From positions 5,600,001 to 5,664,000 of the forward strand of contig CBDFKD010000002.1 of NCBI GenBank assembly GCA_965248695.1: DNA of 64,000 nucleotides, given 5' to 3'. The stretch is from Acidobacteriota bacterium. GTDB lineage: Bacteria > Acidobacteriota > UBA890 > WLXD01. The notes under the pieces were generated by a model. That model saw only the letters and a list, made by a program, of their open reading frames with translations. It made no database searches and was not told the origin of the DNA. Within the stretch, counting starts at the first letter, position 1, and the number at the start of each line of letters is the position of its first letter. Positions 12,320-48,517 of this stretch are shown one piece after another. Position numbers and translations under genes: made by a program.

Positions 12320-13654
12320 ATGAGCAAGAAGGCGGAAGGAACGACGTCGACTCGGCGTGACTTGGCGCGCAGCGCCGTTGTCGCGTACACCGCCGCCGCC
12401 ATGGGGGTTCCCCGGAACCTGCTTGCCAGGGCGATCCGAGAGCCGGCCCAGATGGGCGGTGGGGGTTCGGGGCCCGCTGGGTTTCGAAGAAACACAGTAG
12501 ACGCCGAGTACTATACGGACGAAGCGCGCTACCTGTTCGATGAGCGCCTGGTGGCCGACCACTTCTGGCAAATGGTCGACCACGAGAGCAGGATCCCTGA
12601 TGCGGGCGACTTCTTCGTGTTCGAGTTCGGTCGCACCGAGAGCATCCTGATCGTGCGCGGGCGGGACAACGCAGTCCGCGGCTTCTACAACGTCTGCCGC
12701 CACCGCGGCTCGCGCCTGTGTCGTCACGATGCGGATCCGATCCCCGGGGATCCGCGCCTGTCAGTCAAGCAGCTCAGCCAGTCGGGCAGCTCACCGGTGT
12801 TCCGCTGCCCGTACCACGCCTGGACGTACGACACCGAAGGCAGCCTGATCTATGCCTACGGCATGCAGGAGGACTTCGACCCGGCCGACAACGGTCTGAT
12901 CCCCTGCCACCTTCGCGTGGCAGACGGCTTCATCTTCGTGAACCTGTCGCCCGAGCCGGAGGCGCCGGAGTTCGAGTCAGCGATCGAGCCCTTCCGCACC
13001 GATGTGGGCGGACCCCACGGCACCGCCCAGCTGAAGGTCGGCGAACGGGTCTACGTTCCGATGCACGCCAACTGGAAGCTGGCGCTGGAGAACTTCCTGG
13101 AGTGCTACCACTGCGGTCCGTCGCACGACTACCTCTGCCACGTGTACCCGGGCTCTGACCTCACAACCCCTTCGGAGAGACAAGGAAAGGGTGGCCTGCT
13201 CAACGGATTCGTCAGCGGCACGATGGACGGCAAGGCGGCGGCACCGTTGCTGCCCGCCTTCGAGGGCACCGATGCGAGGATGACGTCACGCACGTCGACC
13301 GAAACGGCCACCGGTTGGTCGACCGGCTACTGGCTCGGGTACGACGATTACGTCTTCGCGGTGAGGTTCACTCCTCGCGATATCAAGCTCACCGACGTGG
13401 AGTGCATCTGGCTGGTGCATCCGGATGCGAAGCGCGGCGTGGACTACGACGCCGAGAAGCTCAAGGAGGTGTGGCTCGTCACGCTGCTGGAGGACATCTG
13501 GTTGTGCGAGAACAACCACGACGGAATGCGCTCCGGCGCCTACCGACCCGGGCGCTACGCCACCCATGAGATCGGCAGCGTCTTGCCGGCCAATTTCATC
13601 CACTGGTACATGAACGCCGTGGCGGGTGACGTCGACCGCGTGATGCCGTACTAA
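12320..13654 (+). CDS. Rieske oxygenase alpha subunit (GbcA/Stc2-like) with Tat-like leader, copy 1
   Basis: TRRDLAR leader; CRH-x34-CPYH; NWKLALENFLECYHCGPSH and LEDIW mononuclear-iron motifs; RBS GGAGG. Confidence 0.9.
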   Translation: MSKKAEGTTSTRRDLARSAVVAYTAAAMGVPRNLLARAIREPAQMGGGGSGPAGFRRNTVDAEYYTDEARYLFDERLVADHFWQMVDHESRIPDAGDFFVFEFGRTESILIVRGRDNAVRGFYNVCRHRGSRLCRHDADPIPGDPRLSVKQLSQSGSSPVFRCPYHAWTYDTEGSLIYAYGMQEDFDPADNGLIPCHLRVADGFIFVNLSPEPEAPEFESAIEPFRTDVGGPHGTAQLKVGERVYVPMHANWKLALENFLECYHCGPSHDYLCHVYPGSDLTTPSERQGKGGLLNGFVSGTMDGKAAAPLLPAFEGTDARMTSRTSTETATGWSTGYWLGYDDYVFAVRFTPRDIKLTDVECIWLVHPDAKRGVDYDAEKLKEVWLVTLLEDIWLCENNHDGMRSGAYRPGRYATHEIGSVLPANFIHWYMNAVAGDVDRVMPY

Positions 13655-13688
13655 CGCGGCGAGCGAGCTCCGCCTACCCGAGGTGCAC

Positions 13689-15623
13689 ATGAGCGATCGG
13701 GATCTTGATTTGGGGATGCGCCGGGAGATCACCCGTCGCGATTTCGTCTCCGGTGTCAGCGTAGCGCTGAGCGGTAGCCTCGCATTGCCGTGGGCGCAGA
13801 CCCACGCCCTGGCGGCCCCCGGGGCGCCGGCAGCACCCCTGCAGACGACGGCGGCCGCGTATCCACCGATCCGGACCGGTATGCGTGGCAGTCACGAAGG
13901 CTCCTACGAGGTTGCGCACCAGCTTCGAGATGGCATGCGCTGGGACGACCCGGAGGAGACCGGTGAGTTCTACGACCTGATCGTGGTCGGGGGCGGCATC
14001 AGTGGCCTGGCGGCGGCGTGGTTTTACCGAGAAGCGGTTCCCGAGGCCCGCATCCTGATCCTCGACAACCACGACGACTTCGGCGGTCACGCCAAGCGCA
14101 ACGAGTTCTGGCACGAAGGTCGGATGTTGCTATCGCACGGCGGCACCATCGAGATTGTCAACTTGAACCGCTACGGCAGCGCCGCCAAGCGCCTGATTCA
14201 TGCCCTCGGGATCGACGTACGGCGCTACCCGGAGTTCTTGAATCGCGAGTTGTATTCCTCACTCGGGTTGCGGAGCTCGGTGTTCTTCGACCGCGAGACC
14301 TTCGGCAGCGATCGCTTGTTGGTGGGCGAGGGTGAACCCTCCTGGCGCGAGTTTCTGGCGCGCGCGCCCCTGTCGGAGGCCGCCCGCGAACAGATCGTGC
14401 GATTGCACGAAACGAAGGTCGATTACCTGCCGGAGATGACGCTGCCGGAGAAGCGCGACCACCTCAGGCAAACCAGCTATGAGGATTTTCTCCTCGATGC
14501 CGCCAAGATCAGCCCGGAGGCGGTCTCCTTTCTCGAAACGTCCAACGGCTGGGCGATCGGTCTCGATGCCATCTCTGCCTGGGTAGGCGTCGGTAGCGGA
14601 TGGGCCGGCACCGAGGGGCTCGGGTTCGGTGAGGACGACAGCTGGGGAGCTGAAACCGCCGAGGAGCGACTCTACTTCCAGTTTCCCGATGGCAACTCGT
14701 CGATCGCGCGCCTGCTCGTTCGGTCGCTGGTGCCGGGGGTAGCGCCGGGCAGCACGATGGAGGACATCGTCGCCGCCGAATTCGACTACGGGCAACTCGA
14801 CCGCGAGGACTCTGCCGCCCGCATTCGTCTCGACAGCACGGCAGTAAGGGTGCGCCACCTGGGAGACCCTCAGACCGCCGCCGAGGTCGAAGTCACCTAC
14901 GTCCGCGGCGGGCGTGCCGCCCGCGTCCGCGCCGGCCAGTGTGTCCTTGCCTGCTACAACGCCGTCATCCCTCACATCTGCGACGAGCTTCCGAACCGCC
15001 AAAAGCAAGCGCTGTCGCAGGCGTTGAAGGCGCCCCTCATCTACACGAATGTTCTGATCCGCAACTGGACCGCCTTCGCCAAGCTCGGCGTGGACGCCGT
15101 GCGCTGCCCGGGGAGCTACTTCGACGACATCAACCTGAAGCCGCCGATCAGCATCGGAGGGTACCGACACGCTGAAACGCCCGACGAGCCCACCGTGGTG
15201 CGCTTGTGGCGAGCCCCCTTGGTGCCGGAAGCTCGTGGGCTTTCCGCGGCCGAGCAGTGGAAGGCCGGCCGCCGGGGTCTATTGACGACGACGTTCGAGA
15301 CCTTCGAGCGCAAGATCAGGGACCAACTCGGCCGGATACTGTCGGCCGGGGGCTTCGATCCGGCGCGCGACATCGAGGCCATTACCGTGAACCGCTGGCC
15401 ACACGGCTACGCCTACGGCCACGATCCGGAGACCGGCCAGGTGGCGTGGAGGCTCGACGAGCTACCGCCCGAGCGTCGTCCGTGGCTTGCCGCCCGACGG
15501 CCCTTCGGCCGCATCGCGATCGCCAACTCGGACGCGATGGCGGACGCCATGACCGAGGGTGCGATCGGCGCGGCGCATCTGGCGGTCGAGGCGCTCGTCG
15601 CGCTTGAGACGACGCCACGATGA
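13689..15623 (+). CDS. Tat-exported spermidine dehydrogenase (SpdH)-like FAD/heme b oxidoreductase, copy 1
   Basis: TRRDFVSG; YPPIRTGMRGSH..EVAH; VVGGGISG; NHDDFGGHAKRNEF; NRWPHGYA; IAIANSD. Confidence 0.88.
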   Translation: MSDRDLDLGMRREITRRDFVSGVSVALSGSLALPWAQTHALAAPGAPAAPLQTTAAAYPPIRTGMRGSHEGSYEVAHQLRDGMRWDDPEETGEFYDLIVVGGGISGLAAAWFYREAVPEARILILDNHDDFGGHAKRNEFWHEGRMLLSHGGTIEIVNLNRYGSAAKRLIHALGIDVRRYPEFLNRELYSSLGLRSSVFFDRETFGSDRLLVGEGEPSWREFLARAPLSEAAREQIVRLHETKVDYLPEMTLPEKRDHLRQTSYEDFLLDAAKISPEAVSFLETSNGWAIGLDAISAWVGVGSGWAGTEGLGFGEDDSWGAETAEERLYFQFPDGNSSIARLLVRSLVPGVAPGSTMEDIVAAEFDYGQLDREDSAARIRLDSTAVRVRHLGDPQTAAEVEVTYVRGGRAARVRAGQCVLACYNAVIPHICDELPNRQKQALSQALKAPLIYTNVLIRNWTAFAKLGVDAVRCPGSYFDDINLKPPISIGGYRHAETPDEPTVVRLWRAPLVPEARGLSAAEQWKAGRRGLLTTTFETFERKIRDQLGRILSAGGFDPARDIEAITVNRWPHGYAYGHDPETGQVAWRLDELPPERRPWLAARRPFGRIAIANSDAMADAMTEGAIGAAHLAVEALVALETTPR

Positions 15624-15696
15624 AACATTCGTGAGTTCCGGGCCGCCGGCCCTCACTCCGTTGCGCCGAACTCTCGTACCATCCGCCGACCCGCGC

Positions 15697-17034
15697 TCAG
15701 ATGCCGCTGAGGTAATCGAGCTCGAGACGGGCCGTGCTATTGCCGAAGCTCTCTACTGGAACACCCAGCTTGTCGAGCAGCGCGACATGCAGGTTCGCGA
15801 GCGGCGTGCCCTCGCCGTAGCGAATGTACTGTCCACCCTCGAGCTGGCCGGCGCCCCCACCGGCTAGCACGATCGGCAGATCGTTGACGATATGGCCGTT
15901 GCCGTCGTTCATGCCGGCGCCGAACTTGATGACCATCTGATCCAGCAACGACCCGTCGCCGTCCGGCGTCGCGGCCAGCTTCTCCAGCAGATGGCTGAAC
16001 AGCCTCGCATGGTAGCGGTTGATCTGGGCACACTTGTCCATCTTCTCGGGGTCATTGCGGTGGTGCGAGATCGGGTGGTGCGAGTCGGGTACACCGATCT
16101 CGGGGTAGGTGCGGCCGTTGAACTCCCTTCCCATCATGAACGTGCAGACGCGAGTGATGTCGGCCTGGTAAGCAATTACCTGCAGGTCGAACATCAACTT
16201 CGCATGCTCCGCGTAGTCGCCTGGAACGCCGGCTGGTCGGTCGAACGCCGGCAGCTCGACGTTCTGCTCGACCGCTCGCTGAATGCGCTGCTCCACCGCG
16301 CGCACGCTCTCCAAGTATCCAGTCAGTCGGGATTGGTCGCTCGGACCGACCTTGTTCTTGAGCAGCGCGACCTCAGCGAGCACCGAATCGAGAATGCTGG
16401 TCTTGCGGAGTGCGCTGGCGCGGCGCGCCGCCGGATCGGTGGTGTCTTCGCCGAACAAGCGCTCGAAGACGGCCGCAGGATCGGTCTCCATCGGCAGCGG
16501 CGAAGTCGGTCCGGCCCAGGAGATCGTTCCCGTGTAGATACAGCTTCCATCGTCGCAAGTCGCCGCGGCGTCCACCGTATCCAGAGCGAGCTCGAGCGAT
16601 GGCAGCTGTGTTGTCCGACCCAGTTCCCGGGCCGCCAGCTGGTCCATCGAGATGCCGGCTTTGAGCGCACGGCTGGGGTGCACGTTGGTCAGGAACTTCG
16701 TGCTCGCCCTCGCGTGAACCGCGGAGGGGGCGCCGGGTGGCCTGATCGGGTCGCTGTCGAGCCCGCCCAACACCTTCAGTCGATCGCGAAACGGCTCCAG
16801 CGGTTTCAAGGCGTACGAAAACTCGAAGTCGGAACCCACCTCGGCGGGGAACCAACGATCCGGGATCACGCCGTTCGGCACATAGACGGCGCCAAAGCGT
16901 TTTATCGCTTTGGCCGGCGTCTGACTGAGAGCGGTGGCCGCAGGCACCATCGCGTCCAGCAGCGGAAGTGCGACGGCAGCGCCCAACCCGCGTAGTACCG
17001 TGCGCCGGGGAATGGCCTTCTTGGCGATGATCAT
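15697..17034 (-). CDS. DUF1552 domain protein (Tat-like leader)
   Basis: IPRRTVLRGLGAAVALPLLDAM, YVPNG, HHPISHH, DGDGSLLD, LPIVLAGG. Start at MIIAKK. Confidence 0.88.
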   Translation of the reverse strand: MIIAKKAIPRRTVLRGLGAAVALPLLDAMVPAATALSQTPAKAIKRFGAVYVPNGVIPDRWFPAEVGSDFEFSYALKPLEPFRDRLKVLGGLDSDPIRPPGAPSAVHARASTKFLTNVHPSRALKAGISMDQLAARELGRTTQLPSLELALDTVDAAATCDDGSCIYTGTISWAGPTSPLPMETDPAAVFERLFGEDTTDPAARRASALRKTSILDSVLAEVALLKNKVGPSDQSRLTGYLESVRAVEQRIQRAVEQNVELPAFDRPAGVPGDYAEHAKLMFDLQVIAYQADITRVCTFMMGREFNGRTYPEIGVPDSHHPISHHRNDPEKMDKCAQINRYHARLFSHLLEKLAATPDGDGSLLDQMVIKFGAGMNDGNGHIVNDLPIVLAGGGAGQLEGGQYIRYGEGTPLANLHVALLDKLGVPVESFGNSTARLELDYLSGI

Positions 17035-17195
17035 GACGCAGTGCTCTCCATCTGAAGCGGCGCTCTCCCCATCTGGAATGGCTCGCTGGCGACGATTCCC
17101 TGGATGATAGCCGACCACCGGCAATCGGTGGCGGCGGCGCGCCGCAGAATCCTACGAATGGAGGGATTGTCGTAGTACTCGAGTCCTCGGCCGAA
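17031..17195 (-). pseudogene. 3' remnant of DUF1592/DUF1585 (PSD/cytochrome c) partner gene
   Basis: FGRGLEYYDNPSIRRILRRAAATDCRWSAIIQGIVASEPFQM...; its TGA overlaps the DUF1552 ATG (ATGA); in-frame stop upstream at 17229-17231. Confidence 0.75.
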
Positions 17196-17343
17196 CGGGT
17201 CAGATCGCCTGGATGCTCGACGTAGGCCTCAAGAGTCCGCTCTTCACGTTGTCGTAGCTGGATCTCGGGGGTAGAGTTCACCTCCTCGTTGGTTCACGGA
17301 GCGCGCTGAACGGGAAACGTCGGGCGCCGGGTAAGAGCAGACA

Positions 17344-19401
17344 ATGCGCCGAATAAGGCTCGCTAGCTCCTTTGTGGCAATCACGCTGTTGGCGGGGCTT
17401 TCGCACGCCGGCGGGCAGCTCTCCCAGACCGAGAGCCAGATCCTGGGCGCGCTGGACAAAGACAGGACCCTCGCCCTCACCCGCCGCCTCTCGGAAGAGC
17501 TGGTCAAGAACGACTCCGGTGGGGGCGCCGGCTCGGCCATCGCCGGCAGCGCCGATGAACGCCTCTTGGCCGGCTTCATCGAGGCCGAAATGACCCGGAT
17601 GGGTCTGGACGTGCGGCGCGAGAGCTTTCCCGTGCACGCCTACGACTACGGCAAAGTACTGCTGCGGGCAGCGGGCAGACAGCTGGCGGCGATTACCCAA
17701 CATTCCGGCGGTGGCACCTGGGGCACGGCCGAGCGCGTGCCGTACACCAAGGGCAACACGTCTGCTGGACGGGTCTTGCGAGCGGCCTTGCTCGATGCCG
17801 GAGAAGGCTGGGTTAATGACTACGCTGATCTGAGCGAGGTGCCCGGCAACGCCGTGCTCGTGCGCCGCGGAGACGACTGGCTCAACAGCCAGGTCGTGAT
17901 GGAGGCGGCGGAACAGGGAGCCTCCGCGATCTTGCTCTACGACTACGACAGCGGTGCGGAGGCCCCACAGGACTCGATCCAGCAGATGAGCATCGTCTAC
18001 CGCGACCCGATCCCGACCGTAACGATCAGCAACAGCGATGCGGCATGGCTCAAGGAGCGCCTCGCCGAGGGCGAGGTGATGATCGAGCTGGAAAACCGGG
18101 TCGACGTCGAATACGGCTCCTCAGAGAACGTCATCGGCATGATCCGGGGCCGGGAGTATCCAGACGAATGGATCATCGTCTCGGCGCACCACGACCGCTG
18201 GTGGCAGGGGGCCCAGGACGACAGCGTCGGGGTGGCCGTCATGCTGGAGTTGGCGCGCGTGATCTCGGAGGGCTACCGGCCGCGGCGCAGCTTCCTCTTC
18301 ATTGGCTTCGGCAGCGAAGAGGTCGGAGGGCTGTGGACCCAGTTCGACTGGCTGGCGGGCTCGCATGCGTTCATCCGGGCACACCCCGAGATCACCTCGC
18401 GGTTGGCCTATGCCTTCAACCTGGACATCGCTGGATGGACGGGGCGCGAGGGCCGCGTGAACGCCACCCCCGACCAGGTTGCCTTCCAACGCGAACTGCT
18501 GGCGGACCTCGGCCTCGACGAGCGGGTGACGGTGCGTGAGCACGTCAGTACCGGCGTCGATGCCTGGTCACTCGGAGGTGTTCGGGGCGGAGCGGTGGCA
18601 ACCCTGAGCTGGACGGGTGACGTCCCCTACAGCCGCTACTACCACACGCAGCACGATGTCTATCGAGCCGAGGACTATGCCAACCTGGAGCACGATCTGC
18701 GACACGGGGCACTCGGCGTGTTGCGGATGGACCAGGCTGTCGTCCTGCCCGTCGGCTTTTCGGAGATCGCCGGCTGGGTCGCCAAAGAGCTCGAGAGGCT
18801 CGAGCAGACGCTCTCGGGTCTCTCGGCGCCGACCGACCTGCTTCGCGACGCCGGACAGGCGGCAGAGCGCCTGCGCGTGCAGGGCGACAGGTTGACCGCG
18901 TCGTCTGCGTCTTTGGCGGATGGAGATCACGCGGCCATGGTCAACGCCCTCTTGATGAACACCCGGCATGATCTCGTTCCCTGGCTTCTGAACACGGAAG
19001 CGCGTCTGCGCGGGAGCGGGCACGCGGACGATGTCGTCGCCCTCCAGAGGGCGCGTATCGCTGCCGCGGATGGAGATGCCGAGGCTGCAGCTACTGCGCT
19101 CGAAGAAGTCAACACGATGCTGTGGGGCAAGCGGGTCTCGTCCGGGACCTATCGCGCCGAGAGGCTGCTCTCCTACGAGCCAACCGGTTGGATGTGGGAG
19201 TTCGACCAGCACCCGCGTCCGGTCAGCCCCGAGCTCTACACCATCTACTCGAAGCTCCGGGCAGGGCGCGGCGCCGATTCGGTCGCCGGGATCGGCAGGC
19301 TCGAGGCGCAGGCGGAGGGCTCGCTGCGGGAGGCCTTGTTCATCGTCAGCGGCAAGCTCAGGGACGCCGCGAGGGCGCTCGCCGACACTCCTCTACCGTA
19401 G
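17344..19401 (+). CDS. Secreted M28 family metallopeptidase with PA domain
   Basis: Signal peptide; SAHHD, GAQDD, GSEE, NLD and YHT zinc-ligand motifs. Confidence 0.88.
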   Translation: MRRIRLASSFVAITLLAGLSHAGGQLSQTESQILGALDKDRTLALTRRLSEELVKNDSGGGAGSAIAGSADERLLAGFIEAEMTRMGLDVRRESFPVHAYDYGKVLLRAAGRQLAAITQHSGGGTWGTAERVPYTKGNTSAGRVLRAALLDAGEGWVNDYADLSEVPGNAVLVRRGDDWLNSQVVMEAAEQGASAILLYDYDSGAEAPQDSIQQMSIVYRDPIPTVTISNSDAAWLKERLAEGEVMIELENRVDVEYGSSENVIGMIRGREYPDEWIIVSAHHDRWWQGAQDDSVGVAVMLELARVISEGYRPRRSFLFIGFGSEEVGGLWTQFDWLAGSHAFIRAHPEITSRLAYAFNLDIAGWTGREGRVNATPDQVAFQRELLADLGLDERVTVREHVSTGVDAWSLGGVRGGAVATLSWTGDVPYSRYYHTQHDVYRAEDYANLEHDLRHGALGVLRMDQAVVLPVGFSEIAGWVAKELERLEQTLSGLSAPTDLLRDAGQAAERLRVQGDRLTASSASLADGDHAAMVNALLMNTRHDLVPWLLNTEARLRGSGHADDVVALQRARIAAADGDAEAAATALEEVNTMLWGKRVSSGTYRAERLLSYEPTGWMWEFDQHPRPVSPELYTIYSKLRAGRGADSVAGIGRLEAQAEGSLREALFIVSGKLRDAARALADTPLP

Positions 19402-19567
19402 GCTCGGGTGCCTCTAATCGGAAGAGTCGGTCGGCTCCCTACTGTTAACCGGCGCCCGGTCGTGATACGCCTGAGCCAGACTCCCGACGGGGACGAAGCC
19501 CGATTCGGAGAACGTGGTCGGGAGCTCTTGCACCGCGCCACTTCAGCCCGTTGATCGAGGAGAGTCC

Positions 19568-20953: not shown

Positions 20954-21005
20954 GTCGCTTCCCCACAATTCAGAGTGCATCGGCCCAGAGAAGTTGGAGG
21001 GCGGG

Positions 21006-22328: not shown

Positions 22329-22345
22329 CGAGCTTGGAGGATGGG

Positions 22346-23728: not shown

Positions 23729-23796
23729 ATCTCCGAGTTGCTGCATCAGGTAGCGACTGCGGGCAACCGAGCGCACTCCGCGCACCGAGGATGCAC

Positions 23797-25725
23797 ATGA
23801 GAGATCGGGATCTTGATCTGGGAATGCACCGGGAGATCACCCGGCGTGATTTCGTCTCCGGTGTCAGCGTAGCGCTGAGCGGCAGCCTCGCATTGCCGTG
23901 GGCGCAGACGGGCGCCCTGGCTAACCCCACGGCTCCGGCACAAACCCCACAGTCCATGGCGGCCGCGTATCCACCGATCCGGACCGGTATGCGCGGCAGT
24001 CATGAAGGCTCCTACGAGGTCGCTCACCAGCTTCGAGATGGCATGCGCTGGGACAACCCGGAGGAGACGGGTGAGCTCTACGACCTGATCGTGGTCGGTG
24101 GCGGCATCAGCGGCCTCGCCTCGGCATGGTTTTATCGCGAAGCCGTCCCCGGGGCGCGCATCCTGATCCTCGATAACCACGACGACTTCGGCGGTCATGC
24201 CAAGCGCAACGAGTTCTGGCACGAAGACCAGATGGAGCTGTCACATGGCGGCACCATCTTCATCTCCAACTTGCATCGGTACAGTGCAGCAGCCCAGCGC
24301 CTGATCCGCGGGATCGGCATCGATGTGAACCGCTACTCCGAGTTCCTCGACGAGGATCTGTACAGCTCGCTCGGCATGGGCGGGTCGGTCTTCTTCGACC
24401 GCGAGACGTTCGGCACCGATCGTCTGCTGTTGGGTGAAGGCGAGCCATCTTGGCGCCAGTTTCTGGCGCACGCACCCTTGTCCGAGGCGGCGCGTGAGGA
24501 CCTCGTACGACTCCACGAATCGGACGTCGATTATCTGGCGCACCTCAGCTTGGAGGAGAAGGTCGAGTACCTTCAGCACACGAGCTACGAGGACTTTCTC
24601 TTGCAGGTGGTCAAGATCAGCCCGGAGGCGGTCTCCTTCCTCCGGACGTCCAACGGCTGGGCGATCGGCATCGACGCCATCTCCGCCTGGAGTGGCGCTG
24701 GCAGCCGGCCAGGAACCACCGGGCTCGGTTTGGGTCGCGACGATGCGGCCGCCGAACCGCGCGAGGAGCGCGCGTTCTTCCAGTTCCCGGATGGCAACTC
24801 TTCCGTCGCGCGCCTGCTCGTCCGGTCGCTGATCCCCGACGTCGCTCCCGGCACCACGATGGAGGATGTCGTCGCTGCACGATTCGATTACGGCAAGCTC
24901 GATCGGGAAGACTCGCCCGTCCGCGTGCGCCTGGAGAGCACAGCGGTGCGAGTAGGCCACCGGGGCGATCCGCGCACTGCCGAAGAAGTCGAGGTCACCT
25001 ACGTCCGCCACGGCCGCGCCCAGCGAGCTCGCGCCGGCCGCTGTGTGCTTGCCTGCTACAACGCGGTCATTCCTCATATTTGCGACGAGCTGCCGGACAC
25101 GCAAGAGCACGCGCTATCGAATGCTCTCAAGGCGCCCCTTATCTACACCAACGTCCTGATCCGCAACTGGACCGCCTTCCAGAAGCTCGGCACGCACGAT
25201 GTGCGCTGCCCGGGCAGTTATTTCGACGACGTCAATCTGACACCGCCGATCAGCATTGGAGGCTACCGACACGCAAGCACTCCCGACGAGCCCACCGTGG
25301 TGCGCATGTGGCGCGCCCCGCTGGTGCCCGAGGCCCGCGGGCAGTCCGCGGCGGAGCAATGGAAAGCCGCCCGCCAGAGTCTGGTGATGACGACGTTCGA
25401 GACCTTCGAGCGCAAGATCAGGGATCAGCTCGGCCGCATACTCTCCACCGGAGGCTTCGACCCGGCGCGCGACATCGAGGCGATCACCGTGAACCGCTGG
25501 CCACACGGCTATGCCTACGGCCACGATCTGGAGACCGGTCAGATCGCATGGAGGCTCGATGAGGTACCGCCCGAGCGCTCTTCGTGGATCGTCGCCCGCC
25601 AGCGTTTCGGCCGCATCGGGATCGCCAACTCGGACGCGATGGCCGACGCCATGACCGAAGGTGCGATCGGCGCGGCGCATCTGGCGGTCGAGGCGCTCAT
25701 TGCCCCCGAGACAGCGCCATTGTGA
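23797..25725 (+). CDS. Tat-exported SpdH-like FAD/heme b oxidoreductase, copy 2
   Basis: Close paralog of 13689..15623 with the same motifs. Start could be 23791. Confidence 0.88.
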   Translation: MRDRDLDLGMHREITRRDFVSGVSVALSGSLALPWAQTGALANPTAPAQTPQSMAAAYPPIRTGMRGSHEGSYEVAHQLRDGMRWDNPEETGELYDLIVVGGGISGLASAWFYREAVPGARILILDNHDDFGGHAKRNEFWHEDQMELSHGGTIFISNLHRYSAAAQRLIRGIGIDVNRYSEFLDEDLYSSLGMGGSVFFDRETFGTDRLLLGEGEPSWRQFLAHAPLSEAAREDLVRLHESDVDYLAHLSLEEKVEYLQHTSYEDFLLQVVKISPEAVSFLRTSNGWAIGIDAISAWSGAGSRPGTTGLGLGRDDAAAEPREERAFFQFPDGNSSVARLLVRSLIPDVAPGTTMEDVVAARFDYGKLDREDSPVRVRLESTAVRVGHRGDPRTAEEVEVTYVRHGRAQRARAGRCVLACYNAVIPHICDELPDTQEHALSNALKAPLIYTNVLIRNWTAFQKLGTHDVRCPGSYFDDVNLTPPISIGGYRHASTPDEPTVVRMWRAPLVPEARGQSAAEQWKAARQSLVMTTFETFERKIRDQLGRILSTGGFDPARDIEAITVNRWPHGYAYGHDLETGQIAWRLDEVPPERSSWIVARQRFGRIGIANSDAMADAMTEGAIGAAHLAVEALIAPETAPL

Positions 25726-25751
25726 TCACAGCGGGCTCACCCCTGCGCAGG

Positions 25752-27754: not shown

Positions 27755-29566
27755 ATGCCGCGCAGATCATCGACCGAAACCGGGCTCCGTCTGTTGATCG
27801 CATTGCTGGCGAGCCTGAGCCTATCAGCGTGTCAGCCGTCAACGCAGGACGCGTCGCCACGCGATGGTGACGGTCCTGCCGATCTGGTCTTGCGCGGGGG
27901 TAAGTTCTTTACCCTCGACGAAGCCCAGGTCTGGGCGGAAGCCGTCGCGATCAAGGAGGGCAGGTTCGTCTACGTCGGCGACGACGCCGGTGCACAGAGC
28001 CTTGTCGGCCCCGATACCGATCGCCATGACCTCGGCGGCAGGCTGACACTTCCCGGCCTGGTGGATTCCCATACCCACCCGGGTCTGATGGGGCGGGAGT
28101 CGGCCGGGTACATCGCCGTCCCCGTGGGTGGTGGTCCGAGAGGGAGTCTGCCCCGGCGCGGGAGCAACGAGGAGGTGGTCGCCGCGGTGCAGGCGTATGC
28201 CCAGGCCAACCCGGACCTTCCCTGGATCGAGATGGGTAGCTGGTCCGGACATGTTTACGGCAAAGCGGGTCCACACAGGAGCGATCTGGATCGCGTCGTA
28301 GCGGATCGACCGGTGATGCTGGGAGACGACACCGGCCATAGCGTTTGGGTCAATTCCAAGGCGCTCGAAATGATGGGCGTCGACAGGAACACACCCGATC
28401 CGGTACCCGGTCTGTCGATGTTCGTACGGGATGCCGATGGGGAGCCTACCGGCTGGATCAAGGAGTTCGCCGCCTGGCCCTATGCGCGGCCCATTGCCGC
28501 TGCCGTTGACCGGGAGGCCAACAAGGAGGGCATCGTCACCTTCTTGGAGTACCTATCACGCCACGGCGTCACTTCGCTCTTGGACGCCGGCAACTTCGAC
28601 TACCACGATCTCACCTACTCGTTGCTTGCCGAGCTGGAGGCCGCCGGTCGCCTGCCGATTCGCTACGAGGCCGCATATCACATCATCTTGCCCGATCAGG
28701 TGCCCGATGCGATCGATGAGCTACTACGGTTGCGCCGCACCTACGGCGGCGAACGTCTGACGTTCAACACCATCAAGATTCACTTCGACGGCACGGACGA
28801 GCTTCGTACCGGCGCGGTGCTCGAACCGTTCAGCGATGATCCGGGCAACCGCGGCACGACTCTCCTCGACACCGAGGAGCTCAGTGACTTCATCGTGAAG
28901 CTTCACGACGCCCGCATCGATCTGCACCTTCACATCATGGCCGACCGGGGCGTGCGCATCGCGCTGGATGCCGTGGAAGCAGCGCGGGGATCGGTCGACG
29001 GCGAGCTCTATCCGCGCGTCACCATCTGCCATCTGGATATCATCGACACCGCGGACTACCCCCGTTTCAAACAGCTCGGTGTCATTGCCAACTACACGCC
29101 CCAATGGCACGGCCTGGGAGACCGGCTGCCGTTGACCGCGCTGACCCTTGGCGATCGCTTCGAGAGGATGTTGCTGGTGCAGCCGTTACTGGATGACGGC
29201 GCCGTCGTCACCTTCTCCAGCGACGTGACATCGCTCAGTGGCATGGAGCGAGCCAACCCGTATCTCGGGATGCAGATCGGCCACAACCGCCAGTACCATG
29301 AGCAAGGTGCGGATGCGCCGATAAGGCTGCCGATGACCGAACGGCTGAACCTGGAGGATCTGATCAAGGGATACACCTCGAGCGGCGCCTATCAGCTCCG
29401 CGTGGAGGACCAGCTCGGCTCGATCGAGGTGGGCAAGCTCGCCGATCTGGTGGTGCTCGATCGAAACCTGTTCGAGGTGGACCGCTACGAGATCCACACG
29501 GTGCGCCCCGAAGCGGTCTTCATGGAAGGCGAGATCATCAGCGGAAGCCCGGACGCCTGGAGATGA
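27755..29566 (+). CDS. Amidohydrolase (YtcJ-like) lipoprotein
   Basis: Lipobox LSAC; PGLVDSHTH; IKIHFDG; HLHIMAD; GSIEVGKLADLVVLD. Confidence 0.9.
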   Translation: MPRRSSTETGLRLLIALLASLSLSACQPSTQDASPRDGDGPADLVLRGGKFFTLDEAQVWAEAVAIKEGRFVYVGDDAGAQSLVGPDTDRHDLGGRLTLPGLVDSHTHPGLMGRESAGYIAVPVGGGPRGSLPRRGSNEEVVAAVQAYAQANPDLPWIEMGSWSGHVYGKAGPHRSDLDRVVADRPVMLGDDTGHSVWVNSKALEMMGVDRNTPDPVPGLSMFVRDADGEPTGWIKEFAAWPYARPIAAAVDREANKEGIVTFLEYLSRHGVTSLLDAGNFDYHDLTYSLLAELEAAGRLPIRYEAAYHIILPDQVPDAIDELLRLRRTYGGERLTFNTIKIHFDGTDELRTGAVLEPFSDDPGNRGTTLLDTEELSDFIVKLHDARIDLHLHIMADRGVRIALDAVEAARGSVDGELYPRVTICHLDIIDTADYPRFKQLGVIANYTPQWHGLGDRLPLTALTLGDRFERMLLVQPLLDDGAVVTFSSDVTSLSGMERANPYLGMQIGHNRQYHEQGADAPIRLPMTERLNLEDLIKGYTSSGAYQLRVEDQLGSIEVGKLADLVVLDRNLFEVDRYEIHTVRPEAVFMEGEIISGSPDAWR

Positions 29567-31740
29567 CTAGCGTGACTCGACACCGGCCATCAGGGAAACC
29601 CCGGATAAACCCACACAGACTGGGCATTGCGGCCAGCGCTGCGATCGTCGCGGCGATAGTGCTCGGTTTTGTCTCCCACGAAACACTGATGGGTGGCACG
29701 CTGCGGCGCCAAGCGACGGTGGCCAAGGGCATCGACAGCGTCGACGGTGCCCGCATCGCCGGGGCGGACGAGGAACCGGGGAACTGGTTCACCGGCGGCC
29801 GTACCTTCTCCGAGCAACGATTCTCGCCGTTGGCCCAGATCCACGAGGATAACGTCGGCGCGCTCGGCTTCGCCTGGGAATACGACCTGCGGACCAAGGA
29901 CCCGCTCGAGGCCTCGCCGGTCGTCATTGACGGCATCCTGTACGCCAGCGGCCCCTGGGGTCGCGTCTACGCCGTGGACGCCGCCACCGGTGAGGAGCTC
30001 TGGGCCTACGATCCCCAGGCGTCCGGCAGCTGGGCCCGCAAGGCGTGTTGTGGGGTGGTCAACCGCGGCTTGGCGGCCTGGAAGGGCTCTCTGTACGTGG
30101 CTTCGCTCGACGGTCGGCTCGTCCGACTGGACGCCCGTACGGGCGAGCCGCTTTGGGAGCAGGACACGCTGATTGATCGTGACCGTGACTACACCATCAC
30201 CAGCGCCCCTCGCGTCATCCGGGATCGCGTCGTCATTGGCAACAGCGGCGCCGAGTACGGGGTGCGCGGCTACGTCACCGCTTACGACGTCGAGTCGGGC
30301 GAGCTGGCGTGGCGCTTCTATACCGTGCCGGGCCATCCCGACCTGCCCTTCGAGCATCCCGAGATGGAGATGGCGGCGGCCACCTGGGACCCCGAATCGC
30401 TCTGGGAGTTCGGTGGCGGCGGCACCGTATGGGGCGACATGGCCTACGACCCGGAGGCGAACCTGCTGTACGTGGGAACGGGCAACGCCTCACCCTACCC
30501 GGTGGCCACCAGGAGCCCAGCCGGCGGCGACAACCTGTTTCTGGCATCGATTCTGGCCATCAACCCGGACACCGGTCGGCTCGTTTGGCACTACCAGACG
30601 ACGCCCGGAGAAAACTGGGACTACACGGCAACGCAGAACCTGATCCTGGCCGACCTGGAGATCGACGGACGCCAGCGACAGGTCATCATGCAGGCGCCGA
30701 AGAACGGCTTCTTCTATGTGATCGACCGGCGCACCGGCGAGCTGCTGTCCGCGGAACCGTACGTCACCGTGAACTGGGCCAGCCACGTGGATCTCGACAC
30801 CGGTCGTCCGATACAGGTGCCGGCCGGCGACTATGCCGATGAACCGAAGACGGTCAGCCCGTCGTGGTGGGGCGGGCACAACTGGCATCCGATGGCGTTC
30901 AGTCCGACGACGGGGTTCGTTTACATTCCGACGATCGAGTGGCCGACCACCTTCGAGCGTGTGCGCGACCCCCTCGTATACAGTCCGGGCCAGCAAGTCA
31001 CGGGAGTGAGGACCCAGGGCGGGTCGTTTCCCCACGATCCGCCCGAAAAGGACCCGCCCCACGCCCTCAAGGCCTGGGACCCGGTCGCCAACCGCGAGGT
31101 CTGGCGTGTGAGCTACCGTTTCCCCTACAATGGCGGACTGCTGACCACAGCCGGCAACCTGGTGTTCCAGGGGACGGTCGACGGTCGCCTGAAGGTCTAT
31201 GCCGCCGACACCGGGGCAGAGCTGGCGGACATCGAGGTCGGAACCAGCATCATGGCGGCGCCGGTCGCGTACCTCGTTGACGACACCCAGTTCATCGCCG
31301 TGATGGCCGGCTACGGCGGTGGATCGAGCGCCCGGGCATTCCCGGAGGGCTCGGCGGCGATCGAGCGCGGCAACGCCGGTCGCATGATCGCGTTCAAGCT
31401 CGACGGCGGGCCAGTGCCGCTGCCGTCAGTGGTTGATCCTCGCCCCGAAAGCCCGCTGCCGACTCGCCCGAACGTTGCCCCTGAAACCCTCGCTGAGGGC
31501 CAGCTGCTCTACCGCCGCTATTGCGCCGACTGCCATCGAATCGATGACCAGCCGACGATAGCGCCCAACCTGTTGCGCATGGGCTCCGCCGCTCGCGCCG
31601 GGTTCAAGCGCATCGTTCTCGAGGGGCTCCTCGAGGCCAACGGCATGCCCGACTTCGGCCTCGAGCTTGGCGACGCCCAGGTCGACGCGATTCACGCGTT
31701 TCTTGTCGAGACCGCCCACGAGGTACGGGGCAACGACTGA
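29563..31740 (+). CDS. PQQ-dependent quinohemoprotein alcohol dehydrogenase (type II, C-terminal cytochrome c)
   Basis: ACCGVVNRG vicinal disulfide, GAEYGVRG, WDYTATQ, GGHNW, CADCH...GMP. Start uncertain. Confidence 0.92.
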   Translation: MTSVTRHRPSGKPRINPHRLGIAASAAIVAAIVLGFVSHETLMGGTLRRQATVAKGIDSVDGARIAGADEEPGNWFTGGRTFSEQRFSPLAQIHEDNVGALGFAWEYDLRTKDPLEASPVVIDGILYASGPWGRVYAVDAATGEELWAYDPQASGSWARKACCGVVNRGLAAWKGSLYVASLDGRLVRLDARTGEPLWEQDTLIDRDRDYTITSAPRVIRDRVVIGNSGAEYGVRGYVTAYDVESGELAWRFYTVPGHPDLPFEHPEMEMAAATWDPESLWEFGGGGTVWGDMAYDPEANLLYVGTGNASPYPVATRSPAGGDNLFLASILAINPDTGRLVWHYQTTPGENWDYTATQNLILADLEIDGRQRQVIMQAPKNGFFYVIDRRTGELLSAEPYVTVNWASHVDLDTGRPIQVPAGDYADEPKTVSPSWWGGHNWHPMAFSPTTGFVYIPTIEWPTTFERVRDPLVYSPGQQVTGVRTQGGSFPHDPPEKDPPHALKAWDPVANREVWRVSYRFPYNGGLLTTAGNLVFQGTVDGRLKVYAADTGAELADIEVGTSIMAAPVAYLVDDTQFIAVMAGYGGGSSARAFPEGSAAIERGNAGRMIAFKLDGGPVPLPSVVDPRPESPLPTRPNVAPETLAEGQLLYRRYCADCHRIDDQPTIAPNLLRMGSAARAGFKRIVLEGLLEANGMPDFGLELGDAQVDAIHAFLVETAHEVRGND

Positions 31741-43041: not shown

Positions 43042-43077
43042 CAAAGCACGCGGAGCACCATTGAAGGAGGATCACTC

Positions 43078-44808: not shown

Positions 44809-44993
44809 ACACTCGACAGGGGCCGGCGTCGACAAGCGTCGTTGCCGCGGTCGTCAGTTGCACCGCACGACCTCACTGCATCTCGGAGACGCCAGACAGA
44901 GAGAATTCTCTCAAGCTCGACGATGCCGTGGTGAAAGCGGTGCGCGTGTGCTTCCATTCAGGGATCTGAGTGTCGGGGCCGCGGGAGGATGGC

Positions 44994-46544
44994 ATGAGCA
45001 AAAGAGACAGCGAGAACGGGAAAGAGACCAAGGGAAAGAAGGTCAGTCGCCGCGACTTCGCCAAGTCATCGGTCGCAGCGGGGGCCGCTGCAGTAGCGCT
45101 TCCCAAGGCGTTGCGTGGCGAACCGTTGGTGGAGAAGGCAGCGTCGACGGCGGCAAAGGCATCGACCTCCGCGAGTCGGGGCCCGATTACGATGCCGCCC
45201 GAAGTGTCGTACGGCGGTGTGGATTTCGACGGACGCGACGTGCTCCTGGATGAGATTCTGTCGCCCCCCGGCAAAGCGCCGACCTATCCAGGCGGATGGC
45301 AGGAGGGAACGACGATTCCTGCCGAGTACTACCTCGACGAGAAGCACTGGCTCAACGAAGAGCGCTTCCTCCGTGATCAATTCTGGTTCATGGCCGACCA
45401 CGAGAGCCGCATCGCCAATCCCGGCGACTACTTCCTCTTCGAGTTCGGGCGTGGCGACAGTGTGATCATCGCGCGCGCCGAAGACGGTTCCGTGAAGGCC
45501 CACCACAACGTCTGTCGACACCGCGGATCGCGCATCTGCCTGCACGACCAGAACCTGCCCGGGTCGGCGACGGCCAACGGCAAGCCGGAGGACCCGCGGC
45601 TGTCGGTAGTGCAGCAGGGGCCGAGCGGCAATACGGCGGTCTTCCGTTGCCCCTATCACGCCTGGACGTACGATCTCGACGGCAAGCTGATCTCGTTCCC
45701 CACCGGCATGCCGGAGGGGTTCGACGAAACCCAGCACGGCCTGCACCCGGCCCATGTGCGGATGGTCGAAGGATTCATCTTCGTCAGCCTGGCCGACGAG
45801 GAGCCATCGGGGTTCGACGAGTTCGTTGCCAACTGGCGACGGGTGTCCCAGTTCTATGGGACCGCGGGCATGAAAGTAGCGGCGCGCACGCAACACCCGA
45901 CGAGGGCCAACTGGAAGCTGGCGGTGGAGAACTTCGAAGAGTGCTATCACTGTGAGCCAGCGCACAAGTCGCTGGTAGAGGTGCAGTGGTGGCAGCGCCA
46001 ACACGTGCTGAGCGACGAGCAAGTCGCCGACATCGAGCAGGCGGTGGCGCGTCACCAACACCCGGACGAGAAACTTCGGAAGGGGGCGGACGGGGTACGG
46101 GAGGACACCTATTCAATGAGCGTCCACCTGGCTCCCGGCTACGTGACGGGCAGCCTCGATGGCAAGCCGGTAGCGCCGCTCTTGCTCGACGAGTGGACGC
46201 ACAAGCGCCGCGGCGCCACGACCGGGTTCTCGACGTCGTTCTTCGCCGCCTACGACGATCATCTCGCGGTCGCCCGATTCACCCCACGAGACATCTTGAT
46301 GACCGATGTCGAGATCTTCTGGCTGGTAAGAGGCGACGCGAAGGAAGACGAGGTAGACGTAGAGCGAATGATGGAGCTCTGGGACGTCACCTATCGTGAG
46401 GATCTATGGATCGTCGAGAACAACCAGCACGGCATCCGCAACAGCCGCTACAACCATCGCGGCGGACAGCCATACGCGCAACGTGAGGGCGGACCCGCTG
46501 GGTTCATCAAGTGGTACATGACCGAAATCGCACCCCACGCATGA
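44994..46544 (+). CDS. Rieske oxygenase alpha subunit with Tat leader, copy 5
   Basis: SRRDFAKSSVAAGAAAV; CRH-x42-CPYH; ENFEECYHCEPAH; REDLW. Confidence 0.9.
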   Translation: MSKRDSENGKETKGKKVSRRDFAKSSVAAGAAAVALPKALRGEPLVEKAASTAAKASTSASRGPITMPPEVSYGGVDFDGRDVLLDEILSPPGKAPTYPGGWQEGTTIPAEYYLDEKHWLNEERFLRDQFWFMADHESRIANPGDYFLFEFGRGDSVIIARAEDGSVKAHHNVCRHRGSRICLHDQNLPGSATANGKPEDPRLSVVQQGPSGNTAVFRCPYHAWTYDLDGKLISFPTGMPEGFDETQHGLHPAHVRMVEGFIFVSLADEEPSGFDEFVANWRRVSQFYGTAGMKVAARTQHPTRANWKLAVENFEECYHCEPAHKSLVEVQWWQRQHVLSDEQVADIEQAVARHQHPDEKLRKGADGVREDTYSMSVHLAPGYVTGSLDGKPVAPLLLDEWTHKRRGATTGFSTSFFAAYDDHLAVARFTPRDILMTDVEIFWLVRGDAKEDEVDVERMMELWDVTYREDLWIVENNQHGIRNSRYNHRGGQPYAQREGGPAGFIKWYMTEIAPHA

Positions 46545-46552
46545 GGTAAGCC

Positions 46553-48517
46553 ATGACAAATCGCGATCTCGGCATGCGCCGCGACATCACCCGTCGTGAC
46601 TTCGTCAACGGAGTCAGCGTCGCCGTCGGCGGGGCGCTGGCGCTGCCGGCCCGACTGCGCGCCGCCGGAATGCCACAGGCCTACGCGCCCGAGCAGACGG
46701 CGGACTACTACCCGCCTACCCGTACCGGCATGCGGGGCTCCCATCCGGGCTCCTTCGAGGCGGCGCACGCCGCCCGCGACGGGATGAATTTCGATGCCGC
46801 CGAGGATACCGGCGAGACCTACGATCTTATCGTCGTCGGTGCCGGCCTCAGCGGTCTGGCAGCAGCGTATTTCTATCGCAAGGCAACCGGCCCCGACGCC
46901 CGCATCCTGATCCTCGAGAACCACGACGACTTCGGCGGCCACGCCAAGCGCAACGAGTTCGAGCACGACGGCGAGGTGCTGCTTGCAACGGGCGGCACGG
47001 TGTACATGGTGCACGCGGACCAATACCCGGCGCCGGCGCGGGAGATGCTCGAGGACATCGGCGTCGAGCTCGATCATCCGACCAACAACATGCATCGAGG
47101 CATGTTCAGGGAGATGGGACTGGAGCCCGCCGTCTTCTTCCACGAGGAAGGCTACGGCGAGGACGCGCTTGTCGCCGGCAGCGTCCGACGACCCACCGAG
47201 GAGTTCCTCGCCAAGACGCCGCTGCCTGACCAGGTGCGGGCAGATCTACTGCGCCTCTGGAACGACCGGCGCGACTACATGCCTGGGCTGTCCCAGGCGG
47301 AGAAAATCCAGGAACTCCAACGGATCAGCTACCGCGACTATCTGCTCGACGTCGCCAAGGTCCATCCGGACGTGCTGCCGCTGGTGGGTGGCGTTTGGTG
47401 TCTTGGCGCCGATACATCGAGCGCCTGGTTCGCCCTGTATCGTGCGCTGCCGGGTTTCCAGGGACTCGGGATCGCGATTCCGGCGGAGTCGCCGTCGCTC
47501 CCCGGCCACGGCAAGACCGACGTCTACTTCCCCGCCGGCAACTCCGACATCGCCCGGATGATCGTCCGATCGTTGATCCCGGCAGCCCTGCCGGCCGGGT
47601 CGATGGCCGACCTCGAGCTGCAGCGCACCGACTACTCGACGCTCGACGAACCGCGCTCGCCCGTCCACCTGCGGCTCAACAGCGCGGCCGTGCACGTACG
47701 CCATGTCGGCGATGCGCCCGATCTCTTGAGCTCCGACTCGCGCCAGACCGAGGTCACCTACGTGCGTGGCGGCCGAGCCTATAAGGTGCGAGGAAAGGGC
47801 TGTGTGCTGGCCTGCTACCACACCATGATCCCGCATCTGTGCCCCGAGCTTCCGAACAAGCAGAAGGACGCCCTGAGCCTCGCCTCACGCGCCGTACAGA
47901 TGTACACCAACGTCCTGGTGCGCGACTGGAGGCCTTTCGAAGAACTGGGCGTGTCGACGATTTCGTGTCCGGGTTCGTTCTACAGCGCCATCCGTCCGCG
48001 AACACCGCATGCGTTCGGGGCCCACGATCCACCGCGTTCGCCCGGCGACCCGATCATTGTCTCGCTGGGAGACGGCGGCGGGGTGCTCTCCTGGGAGCCG
48101 ATGGTTCGAGGTCTACGCCGCGGAGAATCGATTCCACCCGGCACACCGGTTCGGGAGCAAATGCGATTGGTGCGACAGGGGCTGCTGGAGACATCCTTCG
48201 AGGATTTCGAACGGCGAATTCGTGAACAGATGACGCGGGTGCTGGGGCCGGCAGGCTTCGACGCGGCGCGCGACATCGAGGCCATCATGGTCAACCGCTG
48301 GCCACACGGCTATGCGCTGGCGACCAACACGCTCTTCGACCCGGAGTGGGCGCCCGGCGAGGAACCTTGGAAAGTCGCCAGTCGGCAGTTCGGGCGGATC
48401 ACGATCGCCAACACCGATGCCTCGGGGATCGATCTCACTCAGACCGCTTTCGACGAGGCTCACCGCGCGGTGGACGAACTCCTGCAGATGCGCCACGGCT
48501 GGTTCCCGAAGGTCTGA
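46553..48517 (+). CDS. Tat-exported SpdH-like FAD/heme b oxidoreductase, copy 3
   Basis: TRRDFVNG; YYPPTRTGMRGSHPGSFEAAH; NHDDFGGHAKRNEF; NRWPHGYA; starts 8 bp after the Rieske stop. Confidence 0.88.
   Translation: MTNRDLGMRRDITRRDFVNGVSVAVGGALALPARLRAAGMPQAYAPEQTADYYPPTRTGMRGSHPGSFEAAHAARDGMNFDAAEDTGETYDLIVVGAGLSGLAAAYFYRKATGPDARILILENHDDFGGHAKRNEFEHDGEVLLATGGTVYMVHADQYPAPAREMLEDIGVELDHPTNNMHRGMFREMGLEPAVFFHEEGYGEDALVAGSVRRPTEEFLAKTPLPDQVRADLLRLWNDRRDYMPGLSQAEKIQELQRISYRDYLLDVAKVHPDVLPLVGGVWCLGADTSSAWFALYRALPGFQGLGIAIPAESPSLPGHGKTDVYFPAGNSDIARMIVRSLIPAALPAGSMADLELQRTDYSTLDEPRSPVHLRLNSAAVHVRHVGDAPDLLSSDSRQTEVTYVRGGRAYKVRGKGCVLACYHTMIPHLCPELPNKQKDALSLASRAVQMYTNVLVRDWRPFEELGVSTISCPGSFYSAIRPRTPHAFGAHDPPRSPGDPIIVSLGDGGGVLSWEPMVRGLRRGESIPPGTPVREQMRLVRQGLLETSFEDFERRIREQMTRVLGPAGFDAARDIEAIMVNRWPHGYALATNTLFDPEWAPGEEPWKVASRQFGRITIANTDASGIDLTQTAFDEAHRAVDELLQMRHGWFPKV

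Follow-up and report, generated by a model that had tools for sequence, protein, structure and literature searches.

Putatively exported Rieske oxygenases, possibly fed by periplasmic haem proteins, in the genome of an Acidobacteriota bacterium

We analysed a 64,000-nt stretch of DNA (the window, C2:5600001-5664000 of the 5.89-Mb, two-contig assembly of an Acidobacteriota bacterium, G+C content about 65%) that encodes Rieske oxygenases with N-terminal twin-arginine leaders next to dehydrogenases resembling SpdH of Pseudomonas aeruginosa. Five open reading frames (ORFs) match the Pfam families Rieske and Ring_hydroxyl_A, both above cut-off. As an earlier prediction from the same sequence (the original prediction) had claimed, each Rieske cluster ends in a gene for an SpdH-like flavin adenine dinucleotide (FAD)/haem b dehydrogenase with a twin-arginine leader of its own. 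These three genes start 8–62 nt after a Rieske stop codon (28, 62 and 8 nt for SpdH-like 1, 2 and 3, respectively).

12308-13654, plus strand: Rieske 1; opens with TTG at 12308, ATG at 12320; TRRDLAR leader; Pfam Rieske and Ring_hydroxyl_A
13683..15623, plus strand: SpdH-like 1, FAD/haem b dehydrogenase; ATG at 13689; ITRRDFV leader; match to PDB 7D9I
19514-20953, plus strand: Rieske 2; ATG at 19568; SRRDFAK leader; Pfam Rieske and Ring_hydroxyl_A
20994-22328, plus strand: Rieske 3; ATG at 21006; TRRDLAR leader; Pfam Rieske and Ring_hydroxyl_A
22334-23728, plus strand: Rieske 4; ATG at 22346; TRRDLAR leader; Pfam Rieske and Ring_hydroxyl_A
23791..25725, plus strand: SpdH-like 2; ITRRDFV leader; 81% identical to SpdH-like 1
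44970-46544, plus strand: Rieske 5; ATG at 44994; SRRDFAK leader and long linker; Pfam Rieske and Ring_hydroxyl_A
46553..48517, plus strand: SpdH-like 3; ITRRDFV leader, which passes TIGR01409

The Rieske proteins score 88–105 bits against PF00848 (Ring_hydroxyl_A, cut-off 24.9), and their best solved relatives are 3N0Q and Stc2 (3VCA, 4QUP), with E-values of 2e-53 to 7e-53 over the whole catalytic region. The [2Fe-2S] ligands C126, H128, C163 and H166 (CxH...CxxH) are invariant in alignments A1, A2 and A4 (27, 62 and 13 members, respectively), and so are both His of the ECYHCGPxH pair and the EDIW Asp, which from its alignment to 3N0Q is probably an iron ligand; the retention of both ligand sets noted in the original prediction is thereby borne out. 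Cluster ligands and a 2-His-1-carboxylate site within a Ring_hydroxyl_A domain, which structurally define the alpha subunit of a Rieske oxygenase, are all present. All five proteins reach 215–236 bits with the NCBIfam GbcA equivalog NF058607, far below its cut-off of 670, and are therefore relatives rather than orthologues of the betaine/stachydrine demethylases. With Stc2, 3N0Q and GbcA they share the CxH/CxxH Rieske residues, the ECYHCGxxH iron site and the Asp, and the architecture appears to be alpha-only as in Stc2 and GbcA. They differ by the twin-arginine leader and a linker of together about 55–100 residues, by haem-protein neighbours, by the lack of a nearby reductase gene and by a family-specific insertion between the two Rieske cluster motifs. 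This insertion, of about 17 residues and longer in some members, is modelled with lower confidence by AlphaFold2 in Rieske 1 and might serve as a docking element.

The leaders were as predicted when read from the translations: after the MSK-type N-region, three genes have STRRDLAR and two have SRRDFAK, in each case with an Ala-rich stretch behind it. They fit the motif for twin-arginine translocation (Tat), S/T-R-R-x-F-L-K, with a weakly hydrophobic h-region and a basic c-region. In the same genome the leader is present in 17 of the 18 paralogues, with an ATG 10–21 codons before the arginine pair. Pairwise comparison of 12 SRRxFAK-type leaders gave 273/145/890 differences at codon positions 1/2/3 and 695 synonymous versus 304 non-synonymous codon differences; for five TRRDLAR-type leaders the corresponding values were 32/18/84 and 71/36. 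The leader is translated and under purifying selection, and a true start downstream of the arginines, the event that the original prediction had named as fatal to it, is thereby ruled out. A database search returned 4292 proteins at E ≤ 1e-20 among 8000 scored. The pattern xRRx[FLIVMA] occurs within the first 90 residues of 111 of the 120 best homologues (at least 50% identical), and the remaining nine begin in the h-region or at the domain and resemble short gene calls or fragments. The arginine pair is invariant in A1 and A2, and the leader was found in 12 of 13 members from other assemblies regardless of the partner gene, the thirteenth ORF being called from a downstream start. In the AlphaFold2 model of Rieske 1 (mean predicted local distance difference test score (pLDDT) 76.7, predicted template modelling score 0.80) residues 1-55 have pLDDT below 50, a single helix covering the h-region, and the folded part sets in near residue 56. 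TatC is matched twice above cut-off in the genome. From these features we infer that the Rieske proteins are exported by Tat to the periplasm.

Profile hidden Markov models (HMMs) of Tat signals were also applied and proved of limited information. PF10518 (TAT_signal, cut-off 22.7) gave 20.3 bits (E = 5e-4) for the leader of Rieske 2 and 19.1 bits (E = 1.3e-3) for that of Rieske 5; PF10518 and TIGR01409 stay below threshold for the two SRRDFAK leaders, and both are silent for the three TRRDLAR leaders. TIGR01409 (cut-off 16.7) is passed solely by the leader of SpdH-like 3 (19.2 bits), those of SpdH-like 1 and 2 being as weak as the Rieske leaders. The leader of P. aeruginosa PA3713 (SpdH), which is homologous to the SpdH-like leaders, is an experimentally validated Tat signal according to PMC6085387, and curated Tat HMMs therefore appear to miss true positives of this kind.

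To our knowledge, every characterised Rieske oxygenase works in the cytoplasm and relies on a chain of NAD(P)H reductases. Searches with Pfam for genes linked to the Rieske genes found no reductase of the ferredoxin-NADP reductase (FNR) type, no beta subunit and no plant-type ferredoxin among the 27 window ORFs, among 114 neighbours of ten other Rieske loci of the genome or among 112 neighbours at ten loci in six other assemblies. Over the whole genome Fer2 had 14 matches, none of them in the window or near a family gene (no separate search for Rieske-type or 4Fe-4S ferredoxins was made); Pyr_redox_2 had 37, none in the window; NAD_binding_1, the FNR-type domain, had a single match outside the window, and Ring_hydroxyl_B (beta subunit) had none. 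The claim that the 64 kb hold no ferredoxin, beta subunit or NAD(P)H reductase gene was correct for Fer2, NAD_binding_1, Pyr_redox_2 and Ring_hydroxyl_B, and the cognate reductase that a Rieske oxygenase requires was found neither in the window nor near the other paralogues. We had to reject the missing neighbour as a diagnostic of the leader-bearing family, since control loci of leaderless relatives are also without one. The suggestion that an SpdH-like partner replaces the reductase therefore stands in so far as no reductase is nearby, but this absence is not specific to the family, and the argument for a donor other than NAD(P)H rests on the compartment.

It is possible that a distant shared reductase feeds the Rieske oxygenases. 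This would agree with proteins that remain in the cytoplasm and whose N-terminal extension is vestigial or serves something other than export: many Rieske oxygenases use unlinked reductases, an FNR gene was found at none of five control loci, the TAT_signal HMMs are silent or sub-threshold, and the paralogue at C2:2817746 has lost the RR motif although its frame is open. We consider a cytoplasmic location improbable all the same, as the arginine pair is invariant in more than 100 homologues, with an Ala-rich h-region and a basic c-region behind it, and the leader, which in the model lies unstructured outside the fold, is under purifying selection. Moreover, the genome encodes one FNR-type domain for 18 such oxygenases, and the neighbours are overwhelmingly exported proteins, several of them with RR leaders.

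SpdH-like 1 (P0006) matches PDB 7D9I (SpdH) over its full length with E = 1.5e-141 and an identity of about 50%, judged by eye from the alignment. PMC12564564 describes the P. aeruginosa enzyme (PaSpDH) as carrying FAD and a surface-exposed haem b with the ligands His54 and His562, with electrons passing from FAD to haem and cytochrome c as acceptor in vitro. The corresponding haem ligands H77 and H572 (SpdH-like 1 numbering) and the twin arginines are invariant in 48 homologues (alignment A3), and the FAD motif is retained in the SpdH-like proteins, so that all features of the SpdH family open to testing were found. The likeness to SpdH as a Tat-leader FAD/haem b dehydrogenase, on which the original prediction relied, is hence supported by the 7D9I match, by both haem ligands and by the validated PA3713 leader. 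P. aeruginosa SpdH (PA3713; PDB 7D9F-7D9J) is homologous over the full length and shares the Tat leader, the FAD motif and the two haem b ligands; it differs from the situation here, where each genome has about 27 paralogues and their genes show linkage either to a lipoprotein cytochrome c or to Rieske oxygenases. The divergence of these paralogues (43–82% identity) argues for varied substrates. The SpdH family is large, all 8000 of 8000 scored candidates reaching E ≤ 1e-30. Co-modelling of residues 58-634 of SpdH-like 1 (plus haem) and residues 60-434 of Rieske 1 (plus 2Fe-2S) from separate alignments gave scores of 0.00 and 0.00 against a mark of 0.32, an outcome that speaks neither for nor against binding.

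The genome contains 18 genes of the leader-type Rieske family, one of them split, and three unrelated leaderless Rieske oxygenases. In the paralogue without the leader motif (C2:2817746-2819149) the h-region is kept and the frame is open. About 27 SpdH-like ORFs were found, and the motif RRDF or RRDL is present in 24 of the 28 rows above 260 bits. Seven SpdH ORFs lie less than 300 bp from a leader-bearing family Rieske gene (four co-directional downstream, one upstream, one divergent and one convergent), and 12 of the 18 Rieske genes have an SpdH gene within 12 kb. A scan of positions 9000-27000, uninformative for this phylum, gave no promoter-like site and 12 terminator-like sites (7.3 ± 2.7 expected), with none between any Rieske gene and its SpdH gene. 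Three congeneric genomes (G069, G118 and G130, 11 Rieske candidates scored per genome) have 25–34 SpdH matches each. There an SpdH gene lies within 1 kb at 8 and within 10 kb at 16 of 28 scored Rieske places, and some clusters are ordered SpdH-Rieske-Rieske-SpdH-SpdH.

The expansion of both families is very large for 5.9 Mb (about 27 SpdH-like and 18 family Rieske genes), and some copies are decaying: a Rieske gene split by a stop (C2:3037322-3038890), an SpdH gene split in two (C2:5174510-5176479), an SpdH gene with an in-frame TAG (C2:2030847-2032745) and the Rieske gene without the arginine pair. Insertion sequence-type transposase genes (HTH_Tnp_1/rve, Transposase_mut) stand beside several Rieske and SpdH paralogues (L082, L085, L086, L088, L090). 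At L088 the gene order sulfatase-TPR / TPR / outer-membrane-protein / Rieske / SpdH is that of the window, which suggests a segmental duplication. Near an SpdH/Rieske pair of this genome (L081) a VanA-like Rieske oxygenase is encoded in two ORFs, 4775-5797 on the minus and 5885-6460 on the plus strand (Rieske, VanA_C), adjoining a cupin/dimethylsulfoniopropionate-lyase-like gene.

Among GTDB species genomes all strong family members belong to metagenome-assembled genomes (MAGs) of Acidobacteriota. An SpdH-like gene lies within 10 kb at 6 of 10 GTDB family loci compared with 2 of 70 leaderless control loci; in L003, L005 and L067 it directly adjoins the Rieske gene. Altogether 23 loci outside the window's own genome were considered: these 10 GTDB loci, 11 metagenome loci, L178 and L011. 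The metagenome loci are those of the 14 family-like ones that were read by hand, L094, L101 and L152 being too short. The genes next to the Rieske gene are as follows.

SpdH-like gene: L003, L005, L067, L099, L093
Monohaem cytochrome c gene, directly downstream on the same strand: L093, L095, L096, L100, L103, L178
Monohaem cytochrome c gene, convergent: L007, L008, L102
Gene for a pyrroloquinoline quinone (PQQ) dehydrogenase-cytochrome c fusion, convergent: L011 (Woeseia MAG)
Gene for the [2Fe-2S] subunit of a molybdenum hydroxylase: L092
No adjacent redox partner (8 of the 23 loci): L001, L002, L004, L006, L026, L097, L098, L115

The cytochromes adjacent to Rieske genes are mutually homologous. 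All have a lipobox signal and a single CxxCH, and a methionine conserved within an MP(P/F) motif may be the second haem ligand. In L093 an SpdH-like, a Rieske and a cytochrome c gene stand in a row; the upstream SpdH-like protein is 29% identical to SpdH-like 1, with both haem His aligned. SpdH is not a universal partner, as more distant leader-bearing members adjoin the lipoprotein monohaem cytochrome c. The predicted co-localisation of Tat-leader Rieske genes with SpdH is thus strong in the window's own genus and its relatives and does not extend to the distant members. As a general partner SpdH had to be given up: a genome from another family of the phylum (G038, estimated 100% complete) has one leader-bearing Rieske gene, which the lipoprotein cytochrome c follows, whereas SpdH had no homologue there at E ≤ 1e-10 (24 candidates scored), so that SpdH is dispensable for the Rieske family. 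The long open frame taken as the upstream gene at the G038 locus does not resemble SpdH either. Five homologues of the cytochrome are encoded in the window's own genome, one of them at C2:5251523-5251864 and none beside a Rieske gene. Two of the loci that hold them (L173, L176) have NHL-repeat beta-propeller proteins alongside, and in L174 two cytochrome c genes stand in tandem. In L095, a metagenome contig, two more genes, one for a cytochrome c' and one for another cytochrome c (2763-3287, 3016-4143), lie just downstream of the Rieske-cytochrome c pair.

We propose, with confidence a little short of even, that the five genes encode exported Rieske monooxygenases fed by periplasmic haem proteins, here by the SpdH-like flavocytochrome b, directly or via cytochrome c. 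We infer that they act as oxygenases, which way and by which route electrons flow and what the substrates are; the proposed sequence of events is the following. The proteins would be Stc2/GbcA-like, alpha-only Rieske non-haem-iron monooxygenases, exported in the folded state via the twin-arginine leader to the periplasm and so placed beyond the reach of an NAD(P)H reductase. The two electrons per turnover would come from periplasmic haem proteins. In the window the donor would be the co-transcribed SpdH-like flavocytochrome b, which would oxidise an amine at its FAD and pass the electrons to the surface-exposed bis-His haem b. From there they would reach the Rieske [2Fe-2S] cluster, either directly or via a lipoprotein monohaem cytochrome c whose gene lies in another part of the genome, and from the cluster the mononuclear iron, which would activate O2. 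The SpdH-like protein is the likeliest electron source in the window because it fills the downstream slot of the cytochrome c and has an exposed haem of its own. Direct transfer from haem b to the [2Fe-2S] cluster is nevertheless conjectural; the route via cytochrome c is as likely, because the same cytochrome family follows SpdH and PQQ dehydrogenase genes. Since Rieske-SpdH, Rieske-cytochrome c, SpdH-cytochrome c and PQQ dehydrogenase-cytochrome c genes are linked pairwise and L093 combines three of them, a periplasmic electron-transfer network suggests itself, with dehydrogenases as sources, the lipoprotein cytochrome c as carrier and Rieske oxygenases as the sole members that would require electrons. 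Around the Rieske genes there are many exported amidohydrolases, peptidases (M28, M19 and S15) and formamidase-like and MTOX-like enzymes, several with RR leaders. Given this setting and the kinship to demethylases, the best guess at substrates is N-alkylated amines, amino acids or peptide fragments likely released by neighbouring exported amidohydrolases and peptidases.

Several observations weigh against this proposal. Six of the 18 Rieske paralogues have no SpdH gene within 12 kb, most of the about 27 SpdH paralogues have no Rieske neighbour, and the congeneric genomes are kin and hence non-independent samples. Close relatives of SpdH-like 1 occur in MAGs of Gammaproteobacteria as well as Acidobacteriota. 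The sub-threshold and silent Tat profiles and the lack of an SpdH homologue in G038 belong here too, and we found no experiments on any member of the leader-bearing Rieske family. At the five loci of leaderless relatives, each covering 21 kb, none of the 19 NAD_binding_1 matches of the five genomes falls within the locus by coordinates. The argument from missing reductases is also affected by L096, where an FNR-like gene (NAD_binding_1 and DHODB_Fe-S_bind) lies convergent about 100 bp beyond the cytochrome c, and by L008 and L102, which are followed by NAD-linked formate-dehydrogenase-like genes. Within the window's own genome one homologue of the lipoprotein cytochrome c starts about 1 nt after an SpdH paralogue and another overlaps the start of a PQQ dehydrogenase gene; such operons suggest that SpdH normally hands its electrons to cytochrome c.

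The same operons, the recurrence of PQQ dehydrogenases near Rieske genes, G038 and the nine loci of more distant members in which cytochrome c is the adjacent gene would also suit periplasmic oxygenases whose donor is not SpdH. They would instead draw on a shared pool of lipoprotein cytochrome c into which the respiratory chain or periplasmic dehydrogenases of any kind, the PQQ type included, would feed, and the adjacency of Rieske and SpdH genes would merely reflect consecutive steps on the same amine substrates. We regard this as rather unlikely, although it is the most serious of the alternatives: none of the five cytochrome c homologues of the genome adjoins a Rieske gene, the downstream slot is held by SpdH in this genome and its congeners, and SpdH has an exposed haem of its own. 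The Rieske clusters of oxygenases are usually low-potential, and their reduction by a Met/His cytochrome c of typical potential could be uphill, a point that counts against the cytochrome c pool as well as against our proposal where it runs via cytochrome c.

The eight loci without an adjacent redox partner would be compatible with periplasmic enzymes that receive no protein-borne electrons and use a peroxide shunt, as known for some Rieske oxygenases, or quinol via some membrane protein. This is very improbable, for all four Rieske cluster ligands are invariant, which would be superfluous in a shunt enzyme, and no recurrent membrane redox protein appeared among the 114 and 112 neighbours.

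Returning to the proposal of exported oxygenases fed by haem proteins, two known systems appear to be its closest functional analogues. Fungal cellobiose dehydrogenase (CDH) supplies electrons to lytic polysaccharide monooxygenase (LPMO), and CMP-Neu5Ac hydroxylase (CMAH) is a Rieske-centre monooxygenase reduced by the haem b protein cytochrome b5. CMAH and cytochrome b5 differ from the present case in being animal, cytosolic and ultimately NADH-dependent via b5 reductase, and in having another catalytic domain. In CDH-LPMO, as would be the case here, an extracytoplasmic flavin dehydrogenase with exposed haem b serves an extracytoplasmic monooxygenase without access to NAD(P)H; folds and metals are unrelated (copper in LPMO, Rieske cluster and iron here), substrates and the eukaryotic secretion differ, and the pair is no family member. 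PMC12564564 mentions CDH as a flavocytochrome b for comparison. A more specific version, which we put forward only tentatively and consider less probable than the proposal as a whole, is an NAD(P)H-independent fourth class in which the haem b of SpdH directly reduces the co-exported Rieske monooxygenase and cytochrome c is an interchangeable donor in other lineages. Substrate oxidation would then pay for substrate oxygenation, perhaps as a bacterial counterpart of CDH-LPMO. Export of a Rieske protein by Tat has precedents: the Rieske subunit of arsenite oxidase is Tat-exported, and that of cytochrome bc1 is reported as such in PMC6085387. Both resemble the proteins studied here as cluster proteins assembled in the cytoplasm and moved by Tat; they differ in serving electron transfer only, as do all Tat-exported Rieske proteins that we know of, without an oxygenase catalytic domain, and the bc1 leader stays as a membrane anchor. 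A search of full texts, most subscription journals and supplements lying outside its scope, brought up no account of a Rieske oxygenase that is periplasmic or exported by Tat.

If the proposal is true, a large conserved family of exported Rieske proteins would overturn the rule that such oxygenases are cytoplasmic and fed by NAD(P)H reductases, and would reveal a new logic of electron supply for oxygenases outside the cytoplasm. It would suggest natural partners for SpdH-type flavocytochromes, for which we know of no identified physiological acceptor, and would suggest that Acidobacteriota extensively break down nitrogenous organics by oxidation in the periplasm. Reductase-free pairs of oxygenase and dehydrogenase would be attractive for biocatalysis and bioelectrochemistry.

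Further features of the window are listed below.

4044..5696, plus strand: amidohydrolase; KRRDFIK leader; exported catabolic enzyme, context
8123..9478, plus strand: MTOX/sarcosine-oxidase-like flavoprotein; internal start, DRRKFLK leader; context
9594-10865 and 11003-12289, plus strand: tandem pair of paralogous exported proteins immediately upstream of Rieske 1
29563..31740, plus strand: PQQ dehydrogenase fused to a cytochrome c domain; Pfam PQQ and Cytochrome_CBB3

The PQQ dehydrogenase-cytochrome c fusion is a possible alternative periplasmic electron source. Both tandem proteins have an N-terminal signal or transmembrane segment and a conserved CVTCH motif of the haem c type; their C-termini give weak matches to SQHop_cyclase_C and an Atlas score of 0.96 to clusters named 'squalene-hopene cyclase'. 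The pair may form one operon with Rieske 1, and the genome's other Rieske/SpdH loci showed no paralogue of it alongside. A DUF1552 (HXXSHH) protein is encoded at 15697-17124 on the minus strand, between Rieske clusters one and two of the window, and in L092 a DUF1592/1588/1585/1595/1587 protein (90-2549, minus strand) adjoins the Rieske gene; these are Planctomycete-type families for which we know of no function. With the amidohydrolase and the MTOX-like flavoprotein also carrying twin arginines, this region of the window resembles an island of exported catabolic enzymes.

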